A stretch of DNA of 64,000 nucleotides, taken from Giardia intestinalis. Lineage: Eukaryota. A model generated the notes under the pieces. The model had not been told where the DNA came from and did no database searches. It saw nothing but the letters and a program-made list of their open reading frames with translations. Below, piece by piece: positions 5,736 to 42,977 of the stretch. The stretch lies in NCBI GenBank assembly GCA_000002435.2, contig CM018790.1; one strand, 5' to 3'. Both the position numbers and the translations under genes were made by a program. Position 1 is the stretch's first letter; each line of letters starts with the position of its first letter.

Positions 5736-8700
5736 TCAGTAGAGATAGCCTGTACTGCAGTATGCCCCCTTAATGGAGACGTCAAGAGGTTGGAGGCCTG
5801 TTTTGTTTCTTAGGAACAACTGCATCCCACTGATGGTGCCCTCGATGATTACTGGAATGGACACGAAGCACGTTGCATGCTCATTTTCTTCTGCTGAGCA
5901 GTACGATGCTCCATCTATCCCTATCAGATCGTCAATCCCGTCTTCTGCGTCCAATGCATCGCCTGTCTTATTTGCATCTCCCATTTCAGTAGTTGTTCCA
6001 ACTAGGCCAGATTTATACATGTCCAGTGCTGTTTTGAGGTCGCTTCTATTCAGGCAACTGTTGTTATGCTCACAGTAATCAGTGTCTACCAAGACAGCGT
6101 AGAAAGTATATGATTGAGTATAGCCAAGAACAGACTCTGGTGTAGCGTCAGCGACGGTGTCCTCTATAGGGTCGTAAGCGATATTGAACAGTCGGAAGCC
6201 AGTTAGCTTTATCATGAATAAATCGGTGCTTGGTTTCTCACGCGCTTTCTTATCAAGTTTTTTCTTTTTGGCAACGTTAATTGAAAAGACAAGATTATTC
6301 TGGCAATCTATTTTATATTGTTGGATTGCGGTTGGTCTGCTGGCCAGTAGCACAAAGGTCTTCCGTTCTCTGTCCCTGCCTTTCCCAGTTGACTGGTGGA
6401 GGAGCATTGCCCATTTGAGAATGTTCCCTAACACGGATTGGTAGATATCTACCCTAAGCTCCCAATACATGTCGCTATATATCTTAAAGACGGGCGCACG
6501 CTCTGTGAGGGATGTTCTGAAGTAGGGAAGGGTGGTTCTCCTGGTCTGACAGTAGCCATCTGAAAGATACAAGATTGTCCTAATGCTCTTCAGCAAGTCT
6601 GCCTCTTCTTGTTGAATAGTAGTGTCTGCAAACATATTCTTATACACGGGATGGCCATCTAGGTATGTCATTACCTCCTGGGAAAGACCAATAGTAAAGA
6701 TCTCCCGGTACATTCTATTACAGAGGGAATTGTCGTATGTGATAGGCACCATATTAAAGACTTGGTATTTGAGCGCTTCAAGAGATGAAAGATCGCTAGC
6801 CGTTAGTTGCGTTAGCCGCTCTGCCTCAGCTGGGGACCTTTCCTTCTGAGAACTGTCCTTTAAAATGATGTTATGCTCATACCGCTTAATCGTCTTCAAT
6901 ATGCGCTCGATGGCCAATGCCCCCTCTTCATTGGGAAGCCTAAGGAAGGACGCTGTCTTGCTATCACAGGACACCTTTTCAATCTGCCTGGTTCTAGGTA
7001 CAATCTTCGTCAGCTCGGTGGCAGTAACTTCAAGCCTATTCTCCAGCAGTGTGGCATCATCGTTTAAGGCCTGTCTGGTAAGAACACTTGTCCCCTCGCT
7101 TGTATGCGTGTTTTGAGTTGATAGTGCAGAGCTGGTACTACCTACGCTTGACATAGACAGGGAGCTAAGGGCCTCTGATGATTCATCGCACTGTGCGTTT
7201 CTAATATCTAGAAGGATGTCCTCGATCTCACTGGTGTCAGCCTCAACTGATGCCCGTCCTAACCTAGCCCTGGCAATAGTCAATGCAAGCGATGCCTGGT
7301 CAAATTTGCCATCTAGTATGAGATGCACAGAGGACGCATCTGCAAGCCACTTACAGGGCATACCGAAGAGCATTTTAGGAACATTGTGACTGTAGTAAGT
7401 GCTTAAAAATGCCACTGTTGGGCCCGAGATTGCTGGATGCGGGCCAAAAAAGTTGCAATATATGGATAGGTGGGCTTCCCGATCTGACTGATGAATGTCC
7501 AAAGCCGGTGACACATTACCAGCTTTCTTTGCGCTGATAGAGGCTTCATCTTGGCTCCTAGCAGCAAGTATATACTCTGATATAAGCTGCGATGACAAGG
7601 AAAGCATTCCTTCAGCCTTTTTCATCCCAATAAGATGTAGCAGAGACGTTAGAAATCTTGAGTCTGAATACATACGTCCACGATCGCTTTTCAGCAGTGC
7701 ATTCTGAAGTAGTAGCGAGCAGTATAGCGCAAAACTCTTGCTATTTAGGCTGGAAAGGTCCAAATCGTGCTTTTTAAAGACGCACAGGGAGATTGTCACT
7801 AGATACACCACAGCGTCTGAAAGTGTCTTTGGGCCTTCTATATAGTAACGAGAGCCATTAGATATAGACATAAATACTCCCAACGAATAGCTGAGACTAT
7901 TGTATTGCACCTGGGGATTGCTGGCGGCCATATGGTGGGTGTCTGCTTCATTTTCTAAGAGCCTTGAGCGCTGCTCCTTACGAGATATAGCTTCCTCGGC
8001 ATAGAATTGGCCTACGTGGACGGGAATCAGCACAATCAGTAGGCTTGCTGCCCTCCATCCTTTGTTATACATCGTTATGAGCCTGTCAATTGTTTCCTTT
8101 GTGTCAATAGAAGCATCAACAATAACCGTTTTTGTTCGGAAATCATCCTCGGTCGGCCTAGACGTTATTACGCATGGAGCCAACTTGAGCTCATCGAAGA
8201 GACTACGTTCCAACCTGTCAATGACAAGGTCCAGTATGCTCATACCTTCCTCATAGAAGATAACAAGAGTGCAAGAGCCTATTCCATCGGCATAACTCCT
8301 TGACGACATCTTCCGCTCGTAGCGTGTGTCTGTAGTGAGCATAGGCTTAATGCAATGAGCGGGATCGTAGGTGTGGGAACTTTTCCCTATGGTTGCTATA
8401 TCGGGAATGTATCCACACACCATTATGATGTACCAGACTATCCCTATCACTGCTGGATACGTCAATTCAGGAATGAGGTTTTGGTTTTTACAATATGCTT
8501 CGTGTGCTTCTTTGAGGATGGTATCTCTATGTTGTATTTCGTTTCTGAAGCTACATAACCTATTGGCTGTGCCAAAAAGCTTGAAGTTTTGAGACAAATG
8601 TAACTGTGTGATTGATAAGCTAAAGACCAACGACTGGAGCACGTTATTATAGCATGGAACCTGCAAGTCAGTAGGAAGAGGGAGCTCCGCATTGCTATGG

Positions 8701-11700: not shown

Positions 11701-14700
11701 GCAATAAGGAGGATGGCTAAATTGCGAGACGCTATACTAATTAGTGTACTAGTATCTATGACGACACCCAATTTGTGACGCTCGCTAGCTAAAAGGCAGA
11801 GAGTAACTAGCTCAGCTGGTGTAAATAACCGTAAAGAAATGTTTCCAGCATGGCCCAAGGACGACAAGCCATGAATGACCTTAAGAGAGTCTACGTGCTG
11901 CAGATGCGCAAGGGAACTGACCACGAAGAAGGAGTATGTTGGTTCAATCCAGACATGCTCGAGAGACGAGATGTTATAAATGGCGAAGAACTCACGCAAA
12001 TGGGCATCAAGTATATTGCTGGAGATTATGTCTGGGTTCACCCCGTTGTTGACCTTGCAAAACTGCAGGGCCTCCATGAACGTTATTGACTTTAGCGCGA
12101 GTATGGGATTGATCTGTAAGGCCAATAAGAAGACTCCTCGAAGAAGGTAGTATACCATCTGCGACTCTCCGCGACGACCTACATTGCTTATCAAGGATTT
12201 GATGAACTCATCAAATATACTGGACGGTACTTGGGAGGGGGTTAACTTTTCTGTAGAGATGCTCAGCCCCGAAGAAGAGTTTTTGGCAGCCTGTACTACA
12301 TCATCGCTCAAGTCCAGGTTTTGCTGAGTCAAGAACACGTCTACACTCAGAATAATCTTGTATGTTTTTCTATCAAGAGACTCGTCTGCTGATTGTGTCT
12401 GTGTCGTATCATCTATATCAAAAGCAGAATACTTCTCTAGTTGACGCTCTATTTCTAAGCTATCGCGGACCTTTATATCTAGGTGTTGCGCCAGCTTAGT
12501 TTTAGTGATCAATGTAGAAGATGACGACTGCGTCCGGTCCTTGCTTGCAGCGTCCTTTTTCACAGAGCCTAGGGCTGCAGCTATAGCGGCACGTGTACTG
12601 TCATCATTAACCTCCTTGGCACCTGTTGAAGCAGTGCTTTCTTTGTAAACCTGAGTGTCTAGCGTTGCCGGACCAAGGGTGTATTCCATTCCACTAGATG
12701 GAACGCGGAGAAGGAGCTTGATGAGCGCTCTACCGCCGTACAGCTTGTAGCCCCCAAACGAAGCCAGCATAAGAACAATATCTAGTAGAGAGCTGCTAAT
12801 ATCTTGCTTTCGAAGAATTGTGGTAATTATATCCAGCTGTAGCCGGGAGAAGTATTCCAGTGCACTATCTCCATGCTGCTTTCGGAACCCGTGTGGATTG
12901 CGCAGGCTTTGGAGCATCATTAAGACGCTTTTCTCACGCAGCTCTAGATCATATTGAATGGTTAGGTGCACGGTGAAAATTCTGTTGGCCAAGCCTGGTG
13001 AACACCTTGTCACTACATACTTGGTGAAGGCGTGAATATACGCCTTGAAGACTTCACTACTACTCTGTCTTAATCCTAGAGATGTCTGGGAGCTTATTTT
13101 CACGCCTCTGAAAGCTTTTAATCCGAGAAGAATCTTTAGCTTCTTCCGCATTTCTATGTAGCCCCGCATCTGCACACACAGAGATGGCACAACGCAGCTC
13201 TCCTCAAACTTTGTTAAGGACGGATCTGTTGCGGTTTTTTGTGACTGTTTTTCTGGTTTGGGGCCATCTACTCGTAAAATTGCTGGAGGCTGACGAAGGT
13301 GAGGTTTAAAGGAAGAATAGGACCCTGCCACCTCCGAAAGACTTTGATCGTTGCTTGCTTCAGATGTATCACAGGTACCATCTATGACTGTGTCACTGTC
13401 AGACGCTTCTGAGTCTTCCAGGATCTGCGAGTTTTCGCGCGCAATTCGAAGAGTTTCGGTTTCCCATGACAGCTCCATTTGTAACTTTGTTACCCCGCAG
13501 AGTTCTAATAGCTTATTAGCCTTTGCAAAAGCAGCCGTATCAGAGCTAGTAAGAATACCCCAGGGACCGATTGGACTCAGCTTGCCCATAGCGAGTGATC
13601 CACGTAGGGCATCTATAATGTTGATTATGGTTGGGGCTGTGATTTCAGAAATGAAACGAAGCGCCAAGAAGACAGAAGACGCAGTAAAAAGCCGCATTTG
13701 GATGTCCTGGACTTGATCTGTGGAGAAAATGCTGAGCCGTTTCATCTCTGCAAGCAGGCGAAGAAGGCTTACAGGTATTTGATCTTTTACGAGCAAGAGA
13801 CCGTCAATGAGTTGCTTGATCCATGTGGCAGAAAGCTCATTTAATGAAGTTATGGCTTGATCTGTGGTCAAGTTGAATCCAGGAGCTATCTTCGTAGTTT
13901 CATTAGCACTAGCTTCTTCTTGGCAATTTAATCCGGGATACACTCTAGTAAGTATGGAGGAGATGTCGAGATATCGTCTTTGGTTTAGCAAGAGATCAAT
14001 CAGGAAAGCGCGTCCAGTGTCAGGAACCACTATGTTAATTAGTTGGCTGCACTGGAGTTGCGGTGGATAAAATTCGCTCTCAAAGGTAATAGAAAGGGTT
14101 GGTGCGTCAACGGTTCCTAAGAGGGATTGGTGACTATCGCCCTCTGGAGATATTGATATATTGCCGGGAGAATTGAGAGAGAGAACACGTTCTCCCAGGA
14201 AAAGAGCGACTATATCTAGACCGGCGTGCTTTGTAAGCTCGTCGAGCACACTTTCTTGGGCCTGCTCAAACTTGCCATTGTCTAGAAAAAGAACGGTAAA
14301 GTGCATATGGAGGATCTGTCGGCCTGGAAACCTGAGTTCGTTGCCGTTGGTCAGATACAATTCACGGGCTGCATCTGCCAAAAAGATCTTATTTTCCTCA
14401 CAACTGCTGGGTAGGTAGAGCTGCATCACAGAATATTCATGGATGAGAGCATGTGCAGCTTGAATCAGCGTTGTCTTTCCAGAATAACGAGGACCGAGCA
14501 GGTGGACGGAGACACCGCCCAGAATGCAGATTGCAATGAAGAAAATAAGCTGAGAGCGAAGCATGTCAAAGTGTAGAGCAAGCTTGTGTACAGATGTCGG
14601 CTTCAGATAGTTGTCCGTCTGAGAGCTGGTCATCAAACTCTGGCCAAACTTGTAAGGAAGAAACTTTAGATAAGTGTAGTGGTTTGTCTGCTCTTTTATA

Positions 14701-36527: not shown

Positions 36528-36589
36528 TCTTTTTTGATTGTTTACTCTGTCCCAGCAGATGATGATTCACTCCACCCAGCGGTTGCTCC

Positions 36590-36875
36590 CAGTGCTGTGC
36601 TGCCAGATTTACCTGCGGGTATGGTCTAGCAATCTTGTGGGTAAATTGTCGCTTAATTCCTAGCCAATCCGGAGACGACTGTTGGTCATTGATAACATAA
36701 CAAGAGGGTCCTCTCCAGTGATACATCCAGGGCCCGGTACATTTCTCTTCCGTTTCATGGGCGTGTGCTCTGTCTGGATGTGCACGTCAGCCTACCTAGG
36801 ATTCAACTTACTTGCCCATCTGCGTCGTCCACCAGTGATTTCTCTCCTTGGTCTACCGCTCTGATGGTGGAGGGT
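36590..36875 (+). repeat. Copy A of a diverged direct repeat of ~285 bp, roughly 65-75% identical by eye to copy B at 42062-42350.
   Basis: Matching blocks: GTGCTGCCAG/GTGCTACCGG; ccGGAGACgActgTTGGTcaTTGATaACATAACaAGaGG vs ccGGAGACaAaggTTGGTtgTGGATgATATAACgAGgAG; GTGTGCTCtGtCTGgaTGTGCAC vs GTGTGCTCaGCTGAgTGTGCAC; CaTCtgCGTCGTCCACCAGTG...CTCTCCTTGGTCT vs CATCGTCCACCAGTG...CTCTCCTTGGTCT. Confidence 0.55.
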
Positions 36876-37495
36876 CTTAACAGTTGATGTTCCTGGACCG
36901 ACGCCTCGACAGACCGAAGCATCACCCAAGTGTGCTGTGCAGATGGACCAGCCCACACGTCACCGAGCCAGACGCACTGCACAGGGTGAGCGTCGACATG
37001 ATCTCGCGCTGGATGGTGGAGCACCTCTGCGATCCGTGAGCAGAGGGTCATACTTCTCCCCCGACACCACCGCATAGGAGCTGTCCACTGGCATCCACGA
37101 ATGCGTACTATGACTCCAAGATAGAGGCGCACGGGGAGCGCACCTCCGATCATACTCGGGACCGATGCTCGCTTCATGAGAAGACGAAGAGGCACCCGAG
37201 GAACGGGGTAGATACCCGGGGTCGCGGTGTGCAATCTCCGTCGTAGAGCATCAGCACCACAAAGCTACTCCGGAGTGCATGGCCAGAGTCAACTGCTCTG
37301 AGGCCAGATCGCCGCGACAGACGCAAGGCCCGAGACAGCGGGTGCTCAATAGATGTCAGACGATAGCTGACCCAAGCCAGTCAGAGAGAAGAGACGCCCC
37401 GGAGCGCATAGTGGAGCACCCAACGGCTCCCAGGCGGGATGCACAAGGCTCTTCTCCAGAGTGGGCGGCATCCGAGCTTCGGACTCTGGACGGGT

Positions 37496-39633
37496 TTACT
37501 CGGACAGGAGCTGGCAAGCCGACATTGTTGAAACAGAGTAGATCTCGTTTGGGAGGATGCCTACTATCTCCATGCGATCCTTCTTCTTAGCGATATTGAG
37601 GGCAGTGGTACCGGGCGAGTGACCATGGCAGCTGCAGGTTGTCTTCAGATCTTTCTCGTTTTCCTTAAGAAGTCTTGCACACTCCACGGTGTTACTATAT
37701 GCCGCACTCATAAGGGCGATCTCCCTTGGTCGTTTGCATGCCGCCTTCCTCCTTCATTAGGAGCCTGACGCACTCTGGATGATCATTGCACACCGTCCAT
37801 GTGAGGACAGTCTGATGCTCGTTGTTCCTTATGCCAGTCTCCTGCTCGAGTAGCTCTACGATTCCTTCGTGCCCTCGTGCTGCTGCATACATGAGCTCCG
37901 TCCACCCTGAGATACTGCTCTCATACTCCATCAAAAGCTCAACGTGCCCAATATAGTCCACCAGGGGGTCATTGGAACGGTCGCACCGTGCCGCGAATAC
38001 GAGAGCGGCCCAACCGCCTACTTTCTCTCCCTTTTCGTGCTCTGCTAGCAGTTCTACTATTTCTGCGTATCCATTGCCGCAGCCATCATCAGAGCTGTTC
38101 CTTTGCGCATGTACCATCCGCTTCTTGTGACCTCTTTGTATGTTTTCCTCCCCCTCTGGATGGGTAAGAGTGCTTTTACAGCCCCCGCGTCGTTTCTATT
38201 GACAGCTCGCATGAGCGCCGTGACGCCGTTCTCATCGGTTGGGTCGATGGCCTCCACCACGGTTCCATGTCCTGCCTCTGCCGCAATCACCAAGGCCGTC
38301 TTGCCTTCGCTGCCGATCCGGTCCTTCTCATATGGGACCAGAAGGGAGGCAGCTCTTGCATAGTCCTCCTCTGTGGCGATCATCAGGTAGTCCAGCCATT
38401 CTTGTCCTGGAGACCGTTCTCCTCCCCAACAAGCAACTCGACGGGACTGATGCGCCCCTGCTCGTCGCGCTGACCAACACCGAGTCTTTCTTCAAGCAGC
38501 ATCCAGACGGTCTCCGTGCTATTCGTATGCGCGGCACGCATCAGCCCGGGCAACAAAAAGAGGCTGGACTGAGGGTCAGTCGTGTTCATCCTGTCATCGA
38601 ACTGTGCAAGCTTATTCTCCAGTGCCTTAATCATAGCTAGATGTTCCTTGCACTGATCTTCAAGTGCGTCGATCTAGTGGATTTAGTCTTAACATCCTCT
38701 TCCAGCAGCGCGATCCTGGCGTTAGCGCCATTCAGCGCAGCCTCCAAGGATCTGCACCTGTACCTCAGCATCACGCACTGACCCCCCAGCTCACTAACTG
38801 GGATGTCGAATGTAGCGAGCGTCTCGTGCAGCTCCCTGGCCGTCGGCCTCCTTCCAGGATCCAGCACGAATATCCCCTCCAGAACATTCTGCATGAAGCC
38901 ATCAGTGACACCGCTCAGGTCCGGCCTCCATCCATCAACGAAGACCTCTGCTGGCTCCTTGCCCCCCAAGAAGTTTGGTCTCCTCAGAGTAGTAAGTTCA
39001 TAAATGATGACCCCGAGGCTCCACACGTCGGAAGCATGGCTGGTCTCATTACGGAGGAGAATCTCGGGGGCCATGTATACTGCCGTGCCTGCAATGGTGC
39101 TCCCGCATCTCAGGGCGTCCTTACAGAGGCCGAAGTCGGCGATGATGAAGTGTTCACCATCTGCGCTGACGAGGACGTTCGCAAGCTTGAGGTCGCGGTG
39201 GACGAGGCCCTTGTAGGGGCGACCGTCGGCACCCACTCCGCTGAGGCCGTGGAGGTAGGCGAGGGCGGCGGCGACCTGCTTCATGACAGAGAGGATCACA
39301 GCGATAGGGACGGGGATCTTCCTTCGTTTGTGCTCGGTGAGGAGGCGCTCAAGGGTCTTGTCGTGCCGGTCCGTGACGACGTAGATGAGGCCCTCGTCTT
39401 CAATCACTTGATGATACTTGAGGACCCGGGTGAAAGATGTTAAGAAGGGCGGCCAGCCTACGCTTAATAGCATCCACACCGTGCTGATCCAGACCGTCGA
39501 GCCGGATCTCCTTCACAGTGAGGTGGGGGCATCCCTTGGGAGAGTAGATAACACTGAAGGCCCCCGCTGAGCACGGGGATGCCACCAGCGCCCATCGGCT
39601 CTGCAAAGCCGCTAACTGCACTGTTACTAGCAA
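37496..39633 (-). pseudogene. Disrupted NEK-type protein kinase plus ankyrin-repeat gene. The kinase N-lobe, the catalytic core with a coiled coil, and at least four ankyrin-repeat segments lie in six different ORF fragments separated by at least five frameshifts or stops.
   Basis: Fragments 39400-39633 (…SAGAFSVIYS…VKEIRLDG…LNIFHP), 38637-39479 (VLKYHQVIEDEGLIYVVTDRH…HRDLKLANVLV…DFGLCK…YMAPE…coiled coil), and 38383-38634, 38057-38383, 37695-38117, 37496-37711 (ankyrin repeats). The frame changes at ~39425-39430 (a CCCGGG run), ~38640-38675, 38383, ~38057-38117 and ~37700. Confidence 0.55.
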
Positions 39634-40263
39634 CTCCTAGGGCGCCCTCTGCGGTGGCTGGGACAGGGAGTGGAGTCAACAGCCATCGCTAATCTTAACG
39701 CAATCCGGAGCCACCCTTTGGAGTGGCCTTGGCTACTGCCCGAGCAAGGCGCCCAGTGTGAGCTGCCGATGACAGGCCAAGGAGGGCATACTCGCGGCTC
39801 GTATGGTCCTAAGCAGGTCGGATTCTGGAGGCTAACACGGAGCGCCCCGACAAAACACGCCGACTGGGGACCACACTGAGCTCTGGATGCATCAATAGAG
39901 AGAAGCTCTTAGTATGTTATCCACAACCAGACCTCGTCTCCGGACGGCTGGGAAGTGAGCGCGGCTTACCCGTGGGACCTCTGAGCGCACCTGCAGGCGG
40001 CCCCAGCGATACAGTGACGGCAATGTACAGGAGTGCACCCCGAGCAATCACTCCACAAGAGAGGTGCGATTTGAGTCTGGCCCTCACTGGTCCTGTTCCT
40101 ATGGAAGTCAGAGAGAACTACACTATCAGCTGGCCTCCAGTGAGCGTGCTCCTATCTTGTCCTTCTTCAGTCCAACTGGTTAAGGGAGCAAGAGCAGCTG
40201 TCTCTCACTGCTCGCGGCAACACATCAGCCTGACAGAAGAGCAGTGGCATACTAACCCGGCTA

Positions 40264-42027
40264 ATGTTGGTAGGATTTCTCCTAGTTTGTGCAACAGTGC
40301 TGGCAAAGGACAGCGGGAAGGACACATGCTTCCCGGGATACACCCTCAACCCCACCACGAAGAAGTGCGACAGGAACTCCGCGCCGTGCGAGGTCGAGGG
40401 CTGTGATGTCTGCGAGGAAAGCAACCCCCAGCAGTGCAAGACGTGCGGCTCAGGCTACACCCTCAACCCCACCACGAAGAAGTGCGACAGGAACTCCGCG
40501 CCGTGCGAGGTCGAGGGCTGTGATGTCTGCGAGGAAAGCAACCCCCAGCAGTGCAAGACGTGCGGCTCAGGCTACACCCTCAACCCCACCACGAAGAAGT
40601 GCGACAGGAACTCCGCGCCGTGCGAGGTCGAGGGCTGTGATGTCTGCGAGGAAAGCAACCCCCAGCAGTGCAAGACGTGCGGCTCAGGCTACACCCTCAA
40701 CCCCACCACGAAGAAGTGCGACAGGAACTCCGCGCCGTGCGAGGTCGAGGGCTGTGATGTCTGCGAGGAAAGCAACCCCCAGCAGTGCAAGACGTGCGGC
40801 TCAGGCTACACCCTCAACCCCACCACGAAGAAGTGCGACAGGAACTCCGCGCCGTGCGAGGTCGAGGGCTGTGATGTCTGCGAGGAAAGCAACCCCCAGC
40901 AGTGCAAGACGTGCGGCTCAGGCTACACCCTCAACCCCACCACGAAGAAGTGCGACAGGAACTCCGCGCCGTGCGAGGTCGAGGGCTGTGATGTCTGCGA
41001 GGAAAGCAACCCCCAGCAGTGCAAGACGTGCGGCTCAGGCTACACCCTCAACCCCACCACGAAGAAGTGCGACAGGAACTCCGCGCCGTGCGATACTCCC
41101 AACTGCAAGGCCTGCGACAACCCCAAAACAGACAACGAAATCTGCACTGAATGTAATGATAACAATTATCTCACTCCAACCAGTCAGTGCGTATCTGACT
41201 GCACGACCCTCAAGGGCTACTACGGAGACGATAGTGGCAAAAAGACATGCAAGAGGTGCAACGATGCGTGCGCAGAGTGTAAGGGTGAGGGTGCTGATAA
41301 GTGTACGGCCTGCCCTGCTGGGAAGATGCTTCAGTATACAGATGCTGATACTCCTGCCAATGGGGGCACGTGCATGAACCAGTGCAGCGTGAGCCCTGCA
41401 AACGATGGATGCGCAGAGTGTGGGGCCCAAATAGGAGGAACTGCATATTGCTCAAAGTGCAAGAACACTCAACAGGCACCACTGGATGGCAACTGTGCGG
41501 CCAATACGCGAACACGATTTTGCACTACGGTGAGTAATGGAGCATGCACTCAATGTGAAAATAACTACTTCCTCAAAGATGGCGGTTGCTATCAAACAAA
41601 TAGACAGCCTGGTAAACAAGTGTGCACCCAAGCTAACGGAGGAAAGTGTCAGACATGTGCCAATGGCTTAGCAGCAACTGATGGCAACTGTGCAGAATGT
41701 CATCCTACTTGTGCTACGTGCTCGACTGCAGGTACGGCTGACAAGTGTAAGACCTGTGCCACTGGGTATTACAAGGAAAACGGTAGCGATACCACTACTG
41801 GGTTATGCAAGAAGTGCTCAGAGAAGATCTCTGGATGCAAGCAATGTGTGTCATCATCTGGCAGTTCAGTCATATGTTTAGAATCAGAAGTAGGCACTGG
41901 TGGAAGCGTCAACAAGAGCGGCCTCTCCACGGGGGCCATCGCGGGGATCTCCGTTGCTGTGATTGTTGTCGTCGGAGGGCTTGTCGGATTCCTTTGCTGG
42001 TGGTTCCTCTGCCGCGGGAAGGCGTAG
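40264..42027 (+). CDS. vsp: Variant-specific surface protein (VSP), 587 aa: signal peptide, six and a half identical 39-aa Cys-rich tandem repeats, a unique CXXC-rich region, a transmembrane helix and the invariant CRGKA tail.
   Basis: MLVGFLLVCATVLA signal peptide; many CXXC motifs; C-terminus …IAGISVAVIVVVGGLVGFLCWWFLCRGKA*. Confidence 0.9.
   Translation: MLVGFLLVCATVLAKDSGKDTCFPGYTLNPTTKKCDRNSAPCEVEGCDVCEESNPQQCKTCGSGYTLNPTTKKCDRNSAPCEVEGCDVCEESNPQQCKTCGSGYTLNPTTKKCDRNSAPCEVEGCDVCEESNPQQCKTCGSGYTLNPTTKKCDRNSAPCEVEGCDVCEESNPQQCKTCGSGYTLNPTTKKCDRNSAPCEVEGCDVCEESNPQQCKTCGSGYTLNPTTKKCDRNSAPCEVEGCDVCEESNPQQCKTCGSGYTLNPTTKKCDRNSAPCDTPNCKACDNPKTDNEICTECNDNNYLTPTSQCVSDCTTLKGYYGDDSGKKTCKRCNDACAECKGEGADKCTACPAGKMLQYTDADTPANGGTCMNQCSVSPANDGCAECGAQIGGTAYCSKCKNTQQAPLDGNCAANTRTRFCTTVSNGACTQCENNYFLKDGGCYQTNRQPGKQVCTQANGGKCQTCANGLAATDGNCAECHPTCATCSTAGTADKCKTCATGYYKENGSDTTTGLCKKCSEKISGCKQCVSSSGSSVICLESEVGTGGSVNKSGLSTGAIAGISVAVIVVVGGLVGFLCWWFLCRGKA
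40336..41091 (+). repeat. Perfect tandem repeat inside the VSP: a 117-bp unit (39 aa, GYTLNPTTKKCDRNSAPCEVEGCDVCEESNPQQCKTCGS) in six full copies plus a 54-bp partial seventh. Copies begin at 40336, 40453, 40570, 40687, 40804, 40921 and 41038.
   Basis: Read directly; the copies appear nucleotide-identical. Confidence 0.9.
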
Positions 42028-42042
42028 ACTTAGGTAGTAAAC
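42028..42042 (+). terminator. VSP extended polyadenylation element ACTTAGGTAGTAAAC, containing AGTAAAC at 42036-42042, immediately after the TAG stop.
   Basis: Sequence ...ggcgTAGACTTAGGTAGTAAACgcatt... matches the conserved VSP 3' motif ACTYAGRTAGTRAAY. Confidence 0.75.
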
Positions 42043-42061
42043 GCATTACTTTATGTAGCTT

Positions 42062-42350
42062 ATGTGGATGTGCTACCGGGTGCTTGTAGGTACGATCCAG
42101 AAATCTCACGAATAAATTCTCGCTCCTTTGGCCGTGTCCGGAGACAAAGGTTGGTTGTGGATGATATAACGAGGAGCTCCTCTCTTTTAGTATATCTAAA
42201 ACCTGGCACCTTCCCTGGTCGCTCCGCAGGGGTGTGCTCAGCTGAGTGTGCACACCCGGGAATGCTTGCTCAGTCGGCCTGGGATTCCGCTTACTCACCA
42301 TGTACATCGTCCACCAGTGGCGCCTCTCCTTGGTCTTCCTTCACGGTGGG
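42062..42350 (+). repeat. Copy B of the diverged direct repeat (see 36590-36875). It starts ~35 bp after the VSP polyA signal and is followed by ~430 bp of very GC-rich sequence with no ORF.
   Basis: Alignment blocks listed under copy A. Confidence 0.55.
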
Positions 42351-42977
42351 TGAAGCCCGGGTCGCCGTCTTTTTTAGATGCCCCGTCTGTCAGGGGCTGC
42401 CACCGGGCTCTCCGCTGGCTGGGCCCTCGGTGTCCGTCCGGCTGTGTCCCGGTCCAACTGGTGGGTAGAGGCAGGGGGATTGCTGGGGCAGTGAGGACCG
42501 AGTGGGTGGTGTCCATCTGTGCCCCTGGGCTCTCGGTGGGCCATTGGGGCGGTGGGTGATTCTCGCTCTGTTTGCTGCAGTGGTTGTGTCTGATCTCCAG
42601 CCCGCGCTGCACGAGATATAAGCCAGGCACCGACGATCACACTAGGTCCCTGGTCGTCCCTCTGCAAGAGTAGAGGGGAGCCCCTGTCTGCTGTCACAAC
42701 TACCCCACCCCCAGGCGGGTCCGGCAGCACCACAATGAAATCTTCAGCATGCACATTTTCTGCTCGTGTCATCGTAGTTTAGATTGTGCATATCTTAGTT
42801 ATACTAAACTCTACTTCATCAGCCACTAGAACTAGCATAGCTTGGAGCAGCGCTTATTTACTAACTATACTGATGTGTGCTTTACAGCTACACAGTAATC
42901 CACATAGAATACTAATCCATGTCAAGTTGCAAACTACTAAGGTTAGCGCTCATACTTCTTACGGTCCCTTCATGGCC

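Follow-up and report, generated by a model that had tools for sequence, protein, structure and literature searches.

The window analyzed here, a stretch of 64,000 nucleotides (nt) of Giardia intestinalis contig CM018790.1 (assembly GCA_000002435.2), carries on its minus strand, from 39633 to 37496, a gene for a NEK-type protein kinase with C-terminal ankyrin repeats that is divided into six frame-shifted pieces. In the list of open reading frames (ORFs) the interval appears as successive short ORFs of 77, 280, 83, 108, 140 and 71 amino acids (aa) whose frames alternate. A Pfam scan placed a protein kinase domain (E = 3e-30) in the 280-aa ORF (38637-39479, minus strand) and ankyrin repeats in two others, also on the minus strand (38057-38383, Ank_2 E = 1.6e-10; 37695-38117, Ank_2 E = 8e-15). 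The intact NEK of isolate P15 (P0004, 769 aa) aligned collinearly with the locus by tblastn, on the minus strand from 39570 to 37499, in six pieces with frame changes at about 39426, 38675, 38385, 38075 and 37720. Together, tblastn and Pfam bear out the initial annotation of this DNA, which had placed a Giardia NEK plus ankyrin protein at the same coordinates and on the same strand, in six pieces separated by at least five shifts. The pieces are as follows.

39427..39633, minus strand: piece 1, N-lobe of the kinase, whose Gly-loop (CSAGAFSVIY) is degenerate and whose beta-3 Lys (TVKEI) is kept; P0004 residues 33-81 align at 39570-39424, frame -2 (tblastn)
38676..39425, minus strand: piece 2, remaining kinase domain (HRDLKLAN, DFG and APE kept) and start of a coiled-coil linker (Pfam); P0004 residues 87-332 align at 39410-38658, frame -3 (tblastn)
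38386..38673, minus strand: piece 3, linker and first ankyrin repeat, with a 33-nt in-frame deletion near 38462; P0004 residues 342-440 align at 38673-38389, frame -2 (tblastn)
38076..38383, minus strand: piece 4, ankyrin repeats (Pfam Ank_2); P0004 residues 473-576 align at 38386-38075, frame -1, 71% identity (tblastn)
37722..38075, minus strand: piece 5, ankyrin repeats (Pfam Ank_2); P0004 residues 577-694 align at 38075-37722, frame -3 (tblastn)
37496..37717, minus strand: piece 6, last ankyrin repeat, family-typical C-terminus ...CQLLSE and TAA within AGTAAAC; P0004 residues 697-769 align at 37717-37499, frame -1, 67% identity to the P0004 C-terminus (tblastn)

Joined end to end, the pieces give a repaired protein of 708 aa, in which the Pkinase profile is matched from position 13 to 257 of 263 (E = 2e-32) and Ank_2 in five stretches (E = 2e-50). 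The catalytic residues K72, D166 and D184 are retained in the conceptual translation (TVKEI, HRDLKLAN, IADFG), and the position of the alpha-C Glu is occupied by Arg (KRRLAAL, where relatives read RLELAAL). Pieces 3 to 6, which together form a C-terminal TALM-type ankyrin array, show GxTALM motifs, and the kinase domain at 39570-38660 sets the locus apart from Protein 21.1, whose ankyrin repeats are not joined to a kinase. At its 3' end the gene is undamaged, with ...CQLLSE followed by a TAA inside AGTAAAC, which fits the Giardia polyadenylation consensus AGTRAAY. The best homologues of the locus are all Giardia proteins named 'Kinase, NEK'. The homologue search returned no match above 79% identity, a result that is not evidence of absence since the same search also missed the window's own BRF cluster; the search for BRF homologues returned only clusters of at most 93% identity, though exact copies exist in many Logan contigs.

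The gene has been catalogued before. Additional file 1 of Manning et al. (2011; Genome Biol 12:R66) lists GL50803_137735 / GK101 as a Nek-GL4 pseudogene of WB, with a conceptual translation that starts '*ELLVTVQLAALQSRW...'. In the part of that entry available for comparison, which runs up to ...DEQGRIS and so covers the locus as far as 38446, including frameshifts 1 and 2, 397 residues are identical to the locus, in stretches of 71 (39639-39427), 250 (39425-38676) and 76 (38673-38446), and the X marks that denote frameshifts in the entry coincide with frameshifts 1 and 2. The assignment to Nek-GL4 is taken from this exact match to an entry classed Other/Nek/Nek-GL4, over the same part of the entry, and not from a rebuilt tree. 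The gene ID GL50803_137735 was not found in the main text of any paper in our literature search. Among the kinases of WB, 30 pseudogenes were counted, 29 of the 30 belonging to GL4, in a paper that speaks of 'rampant gene duplication and pseudogenization' (Manning et al., 2011). By the match to this entry the window is from strain WB (assemblage A1). The locus is an already curated WB pseudogene and an ordinary member of a family prone to duplication and decay, not a new one.

Lesions and their consequences

We analyzed the lesions in a four-way DNA alignment of the locus with three copies from isolate DH (GCA_000498715.1), two of them broken (L011 and L023) and one intact (L024, 865 aa). The alignment places the following lesions in the window.

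39634..39700, minus strand: degenerate 5' end, with no ATG, the AT-rich initiator deleted and a TAG just upstream of LLVTVQ
39425..39430 (39426), minus strand: frameshift 1, a 2-nt deficit at a CCCGGG short G run; window only
38674..38675, minus strand: frameshift 2, a 1-nt deficit, ACTA-GATC against ACTAGGATC; window only
38383..38388 (38385), minus strand: frameshift 3, a 94-nt deletion relative to the undamaged L024, which takes out one ankyrin repeat and a single further nt and gives WTT-TGA
38074..38076 (38075), minus strand: frameshift 4, a 1-nt deficit, GCGGCA-ATGG against GCGGCACATGG; no homopolymer
37718..37724 (about 37720), minus strand: frameshift 5, a 2-nt deficit against L023 (AAGGGCTGGACC)

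At frameshift 1 the window reads CCGG--GTC where the relatives read CCAGACGTT, CCGGGGGTC and CCGGGAGTC, all three being two bases longer, and the loss removes a Gly codon. The initial annotation had proposed that deleting one G at CCCGGG restores the frame; with three relatives aligned, the change is a 2-nt loss and not a 1-nt gain. Several of the other lesions recur in the DH copies. Frameshift 3 is common to L011, and L023 has a 93-nt in-frame version of it; by tblastn, P0004 residues 441-472, one ankyrin repeat, have no counterpart in the locus. Frameshift 4 is common to L023, L011 being intact at that site, and at the spot of frameshift 5 L011 is short by 1 nt, so that only the extra base of the deficit is found in the window alone. 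The 33 nt deleted in frame from the first ankyrin repeat (QGRISPVELL) are missing from the window, L011 and L023 alike, and are present in the intact L024. In the start region, the window and L011 are gapped where L023 and L024 carry AAAATAAA...ATG, and the window has a TAG in frame two codons ahead of LLVTVQ. AT-rich initiators act as promoters in Giardia. A sixth frame change is tentatively placed near 39612, at a 2-nt gap where local identity to L023 is only 41-54%.

It had also been noted that all parts of a NEK/ankyrin protein were present, which holds for the kinase and the ankyrin repeats and fails for the ATG, the AT-rich initiator, 33 nt of sequence and one ankyrin repeat. A stop codon (TGA or TAG/TAA) closes each piece, and the longest remaining reading frame, of 280 codons, lacks the N-lobe including the ATP-anchoring Lys. 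The beta-3 Lys is in a different frame from both catalytic Asp residues, so that no single product can hold all three. With no start codon, the Lys and Asp residues in different frames and the ankyrin array cut four times, the locus presumably makes no functional kinase or scaffold, although it may be transcribed at a low level.

We consider that 39633-37496 (minus strand) is very probably the non-functional relic of a WB Nek-GL4 kinase gene with C-terminal TALM-type ankyrin repeats, the one curated as GL50803_137735 / GK101. The copy has lost its ATG, its AT-rich initiator, 33 nt of the first ankyrin repeat and one full repeat, and has four further deletions of 1-2 nt. The missing repeat and its additional nucleotide were probably lost by unequal recombination between GxTALM repeats.

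VSP-linked setting and mosaic ancestry

The relic lies head-to-head with a VSP gene, and the two occupy a block of DNA that varies between strains.

40264..42027, plus strand: VSP gene, intact, 587 aa, with a CRGKA tail, divergent (head-to-head) to the pseudogene (Pfam VSP E = 5e-87)
36559..42852, no strand: strain-variable block holding the VSP gene and the NEK pseudogene, 6294 bp long where the syntenic P15 locus has a spacer of 554 bp

The P15 contig ACVC01000066 (L021) aligns to the window at 52291-42853 and 36558-30678 only; in P15 the TFIIB-like/BRF gene is next to a gene about 2240 codons long, with nothing but the 554-bp spacer (L021 9416-9969) between them. The P15 BRF locus has no Nek and hence no positional orthologue, and the comparison with orthologous loci in other isolates that had been suggested as a check on the pseudogene finds nothing to compare at this syntenic site, which is without the VSP-NEK block. 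An ENA scaffold (L022) begins 127 nt upstream of BRF and is uninformative for the block. To judge from these alignments, the VSP-Nek block may either have been inserted lineage-specifically or have been lost from P15. Published accounts describe VSPs, Neks, Protein 21.1 and HCMPs as markers of broken synteny. In DH, a paralogous head-to-head VSP-Nek cassette (L011), of about 87% identical DNA, lies at a different location with unrelated neighbors, and the VSP-Nek unit probably reached its site in the window by duplication or transposition of a cassette.

Several repeats were observed in and around these cassettes. The L011 cassette is bracketed by a 371-bp inverted repeat, 99.5% identical (7352-7721, 12185-12555), and its contig, AHGT01000023, ends inside one arm; the window has a relative of this repeat at 36894-37371, as a single occurrence downstream of the pseudogene. 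Short related elements lie at 36650-36733 and 39880-39961 (inverted, 75%) and at 36787-36857 and 42270-42339 (direct, 76%). Within the VSP gene, 40336-41093 consists of about 6.5 tandem units of 117 bp (39 aa) that are 99.8% identical by self-BLAST. No gene with the exact product of the 587-aa VSP is on record in the contig collection, and the Pfam scan found no families in ORFs of the flanking non-coding parts or in a 259-aa antisense ORF.

The similarity of the pseudogene to its DH relatives is uneven. Identity to L011 along the locus ranges from 73% (39250-39033) to 99% (38382-38083), and L023 is closer than L011 in some segments, for example at 39182-39083 (92%). Among 271 informative sites, at which the locus agrees with either L011 or L023, a runs test counted 81 runs against 129 expected (z = -6.2). 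Similarity to single DH paralogues was seen to switch abruptly, as between 39250-39033 and 38532-37983. From this mosaic of paralogue-like segments we infer gene conversion or recombination among GL4 copies, and the lesions common to different paralogues are compatible with gene conversion.

Such exchange raises the possibility that the dead copy has a non-coding role, either as a transcribed pseudogene that yields small or antisense RNA near the VSP gene or as a gene-conversion reservoir for live GL4 Neks. The mosaic ancestry testifies to past exchange between copies, the pseudogene is physically coupled to a VSP gene in both WB and DH, and the catalog lists a non-zero signal from serial analysis of gene expression (SAGE) for GL50803_137735 (R 2.54, max%*1000 = 10.6; Manning et al., 2011). 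However, conversion into a pseudogene requires no function and does not show this locus to have been a donor, the SAGE tags may be common to paralogues, and the block is dispensable in P15; we therefore regard a non-coding role as unlikely. In a broader form, VSP-linked dead GL4 Neks would undergo ongoing segmental gene conversion and would serve as a reservoir that diversifies the set of Nek-GL4 genes, and perhaps also the VSP cassettes linked to them. The mosaic pattern and the lesions common to non-syntenic copies in another isolate are compatible with such a reservoir and do not thereby establish a donor role, and we rate this broader proposal as unlikely too.

Authenticity, coding status and comparison with related genes

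Several observations weigh against the view that the locus is a relic with genuine lesions. Its substitutions look constrained: the ratio of non-synonymous to synonymous rates (dN/dS, omega) is 0.35 between the repaired codons of the window and L011 (omega about 0.35-0.4), 47 synonymous and 61 non-synonymous changes are private to the window, and there is no substitution-derived stop in about 680 repaired codons. Mismatches between the window and L011 amount to 8%, 9% and 16% at the three codon positions. The non-zero SAGE values mean that some transcript may be made. Furthermore, only WB shows frameshifts 1 and 2 and the further missing base of site 5, and no independent short-read contig spanning 36701-42417 was found in exact-product look-ups of the 140-, 278-, 280- and 108-aa ORFs and the VSP. 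If the window derives from the 2007 assembly that Manning et al. used, its agreement with their entry is not independent either. As a clean test of neutrality dN/dS was rejected, the comparison being confounded by the mosaic ancestry, and substitutions that look selected may have been inherited from functional donors or ancestors.

On a rival reading, the gene is intact in the organism and its frame changes are errors of sequencing or assembly, such as miscalled homopolymers, a repeat that was badly polished or a consensus in which paralogues were mixed. All four of the window-specific differences from L011 are deletions of 1-2 nt, and runs of at least three identical bases, both of them short G runs, lie in or beside two of the five sites (39426, 37720). 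The region is moreover hard to assemble, with no independent contig found across the block: the Logan contigs, Illumina-derived and otherwise 100% identical to the window, all end at 36701 and about 42417, which suggests that these two points mark the onset of sequence with further copies in the genome. However, no homopolymer of at least three bases is found at site 2 or site 4, and at site 1 two nucleotides have been lost. The other long ORFs of the window, 56,280 nt in all and including one of 6739 codons, hold no frameshift, and the flanks of the block are 100% identical to Logan contigs of numerous runs, among them SRR10662860, SRR3568108, SRR3178016 and SRR1957175. With the indel rate set at the 95% upper bound drawn from those ORFs, five frameshifts in 2138 nt have a probability of about 1e-7, which argues that five in 2.1 kb do not reflect the local error rate. 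The 6739-codon ORF (5736-25955, minus strand) is uninterrupted and was used only as a measure of the low indel rate of the assembly.

DH copies that were sequenced independently, and that are only 83-87% identical overall to the locus, also show lesions 3 and 4, the 33-nt deletion and a start region without ATG and initiator, which likewise makes sequencing error unlikely. In addition, the frame of the curated WB sequence (GiardiaDB release 2.3) is broken in the same way at sites 1 and 2, within the portion of the entry compared, and the start codon would still be absent after repair of all five indels. We conclude that sequencing error is very unlikely as the source of the lesions and that an intact gene in the organism is highly improbable. 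The shared DH lesions, the frameshift-free ORFs and the curated WB entry instead support what the initial annotation had argued from the number of indels, a genuine decaying pseudogene.

Continued use of the locus as protein, whether as separate fragments (the 280-aa kinase core, the ankyrin ORFs) or through ribosomal frameshifting, is barely credible: HRD, DFG, APE and the beta-3 Lys are all kept in the conceptual translation, omega is low without nonsense substitutions and the SAGE values are non-zero, but the 280-aa ORF opens with GTG, its first ATG coming two codons later, and is without the Gly-loop and Lys, which are in another frame; the five shifts are of two sizes with no common slippery context, and programming cannot account for all of them; neither the start codon nor the AT-rich initiator is left; and the paralogues bear different, independent lesions (a 46-nt deletion in L011, five stop codons in L023), which points to decay and not to conserved recoding.

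Taken as the relic of a Nek-GL4 gene, the locus is a worked example of the duplication and pseudogenization of GL4 Neks described by Manning et al. For annotation, a single pseudogene should be entered in place of several short 'kinase' and 'ankyrin' ORFs, and the locus has little importance beyond such annotation hygiene. The insertion of the block relative to assemblage E and the patchwork similarity to paralogues are usable in studies of turnover and gene conversion in the variable regions of Giardia; they raise no new question.

The pseudogene donors of other antigenically variable parasites would be an analogue of the reservoir role considered above. Protein 21.1 family members have the same TALM-type ankyrin repeats as the C-terminal two thirds of the locus, which differs from them in its kinase domain and is therefore classed as a Nek; it has been suggested that Neks and Protein 21.1 are possibly one family (Manning et al., 2011). 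The closest full-length intact homologue is P0004 of P15 (assemblage E), with 58% identity over 98% of the repaired protein and the same ...CQLLSE ending. Unlike the locus, P0004 is a single uninterrupted ORF with a proper N-terminus and ATG, has an extra ankyrin repeat (441-472) and is not syntenic.

The copies in DH (assemblage A2), on AHGT01000023 (L011, P0013), AHGT01000146 (L023, P0042) and AHGT01000153 (L024, P0002), share the kinase/coiled-coil/TALM-ankyrin architecture and each adjoin a VSP gene. Their DNA identity to the locus, 83-87% overall, is mosaic, and each copy has private lesions; L011 and L023 are broken like the locus, whereas L024 is intact. The genomic flanks differ as well, L011 adjoining a HECT gene and the locus adjoining BRF. 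In the DH annotation the broken copies are split, L011 (10001-12079) into models of 411, 160 and 101 aa and L023 (3764-5910) into models of 392, 159, 31 and 117 aa, and one fragment model starts at TTG; these split models are probably fragments of broken genes, that is, mis-annotated pseudogenes. The nearest counterpart of all is GL50803_137735 (GK101) itself, which over the available part of its entry is identical in sequence to the locus, belongs to the same class (Nek, GL4, pseudogene, with ankyrin repeats) and differs from it in nothing of substance.

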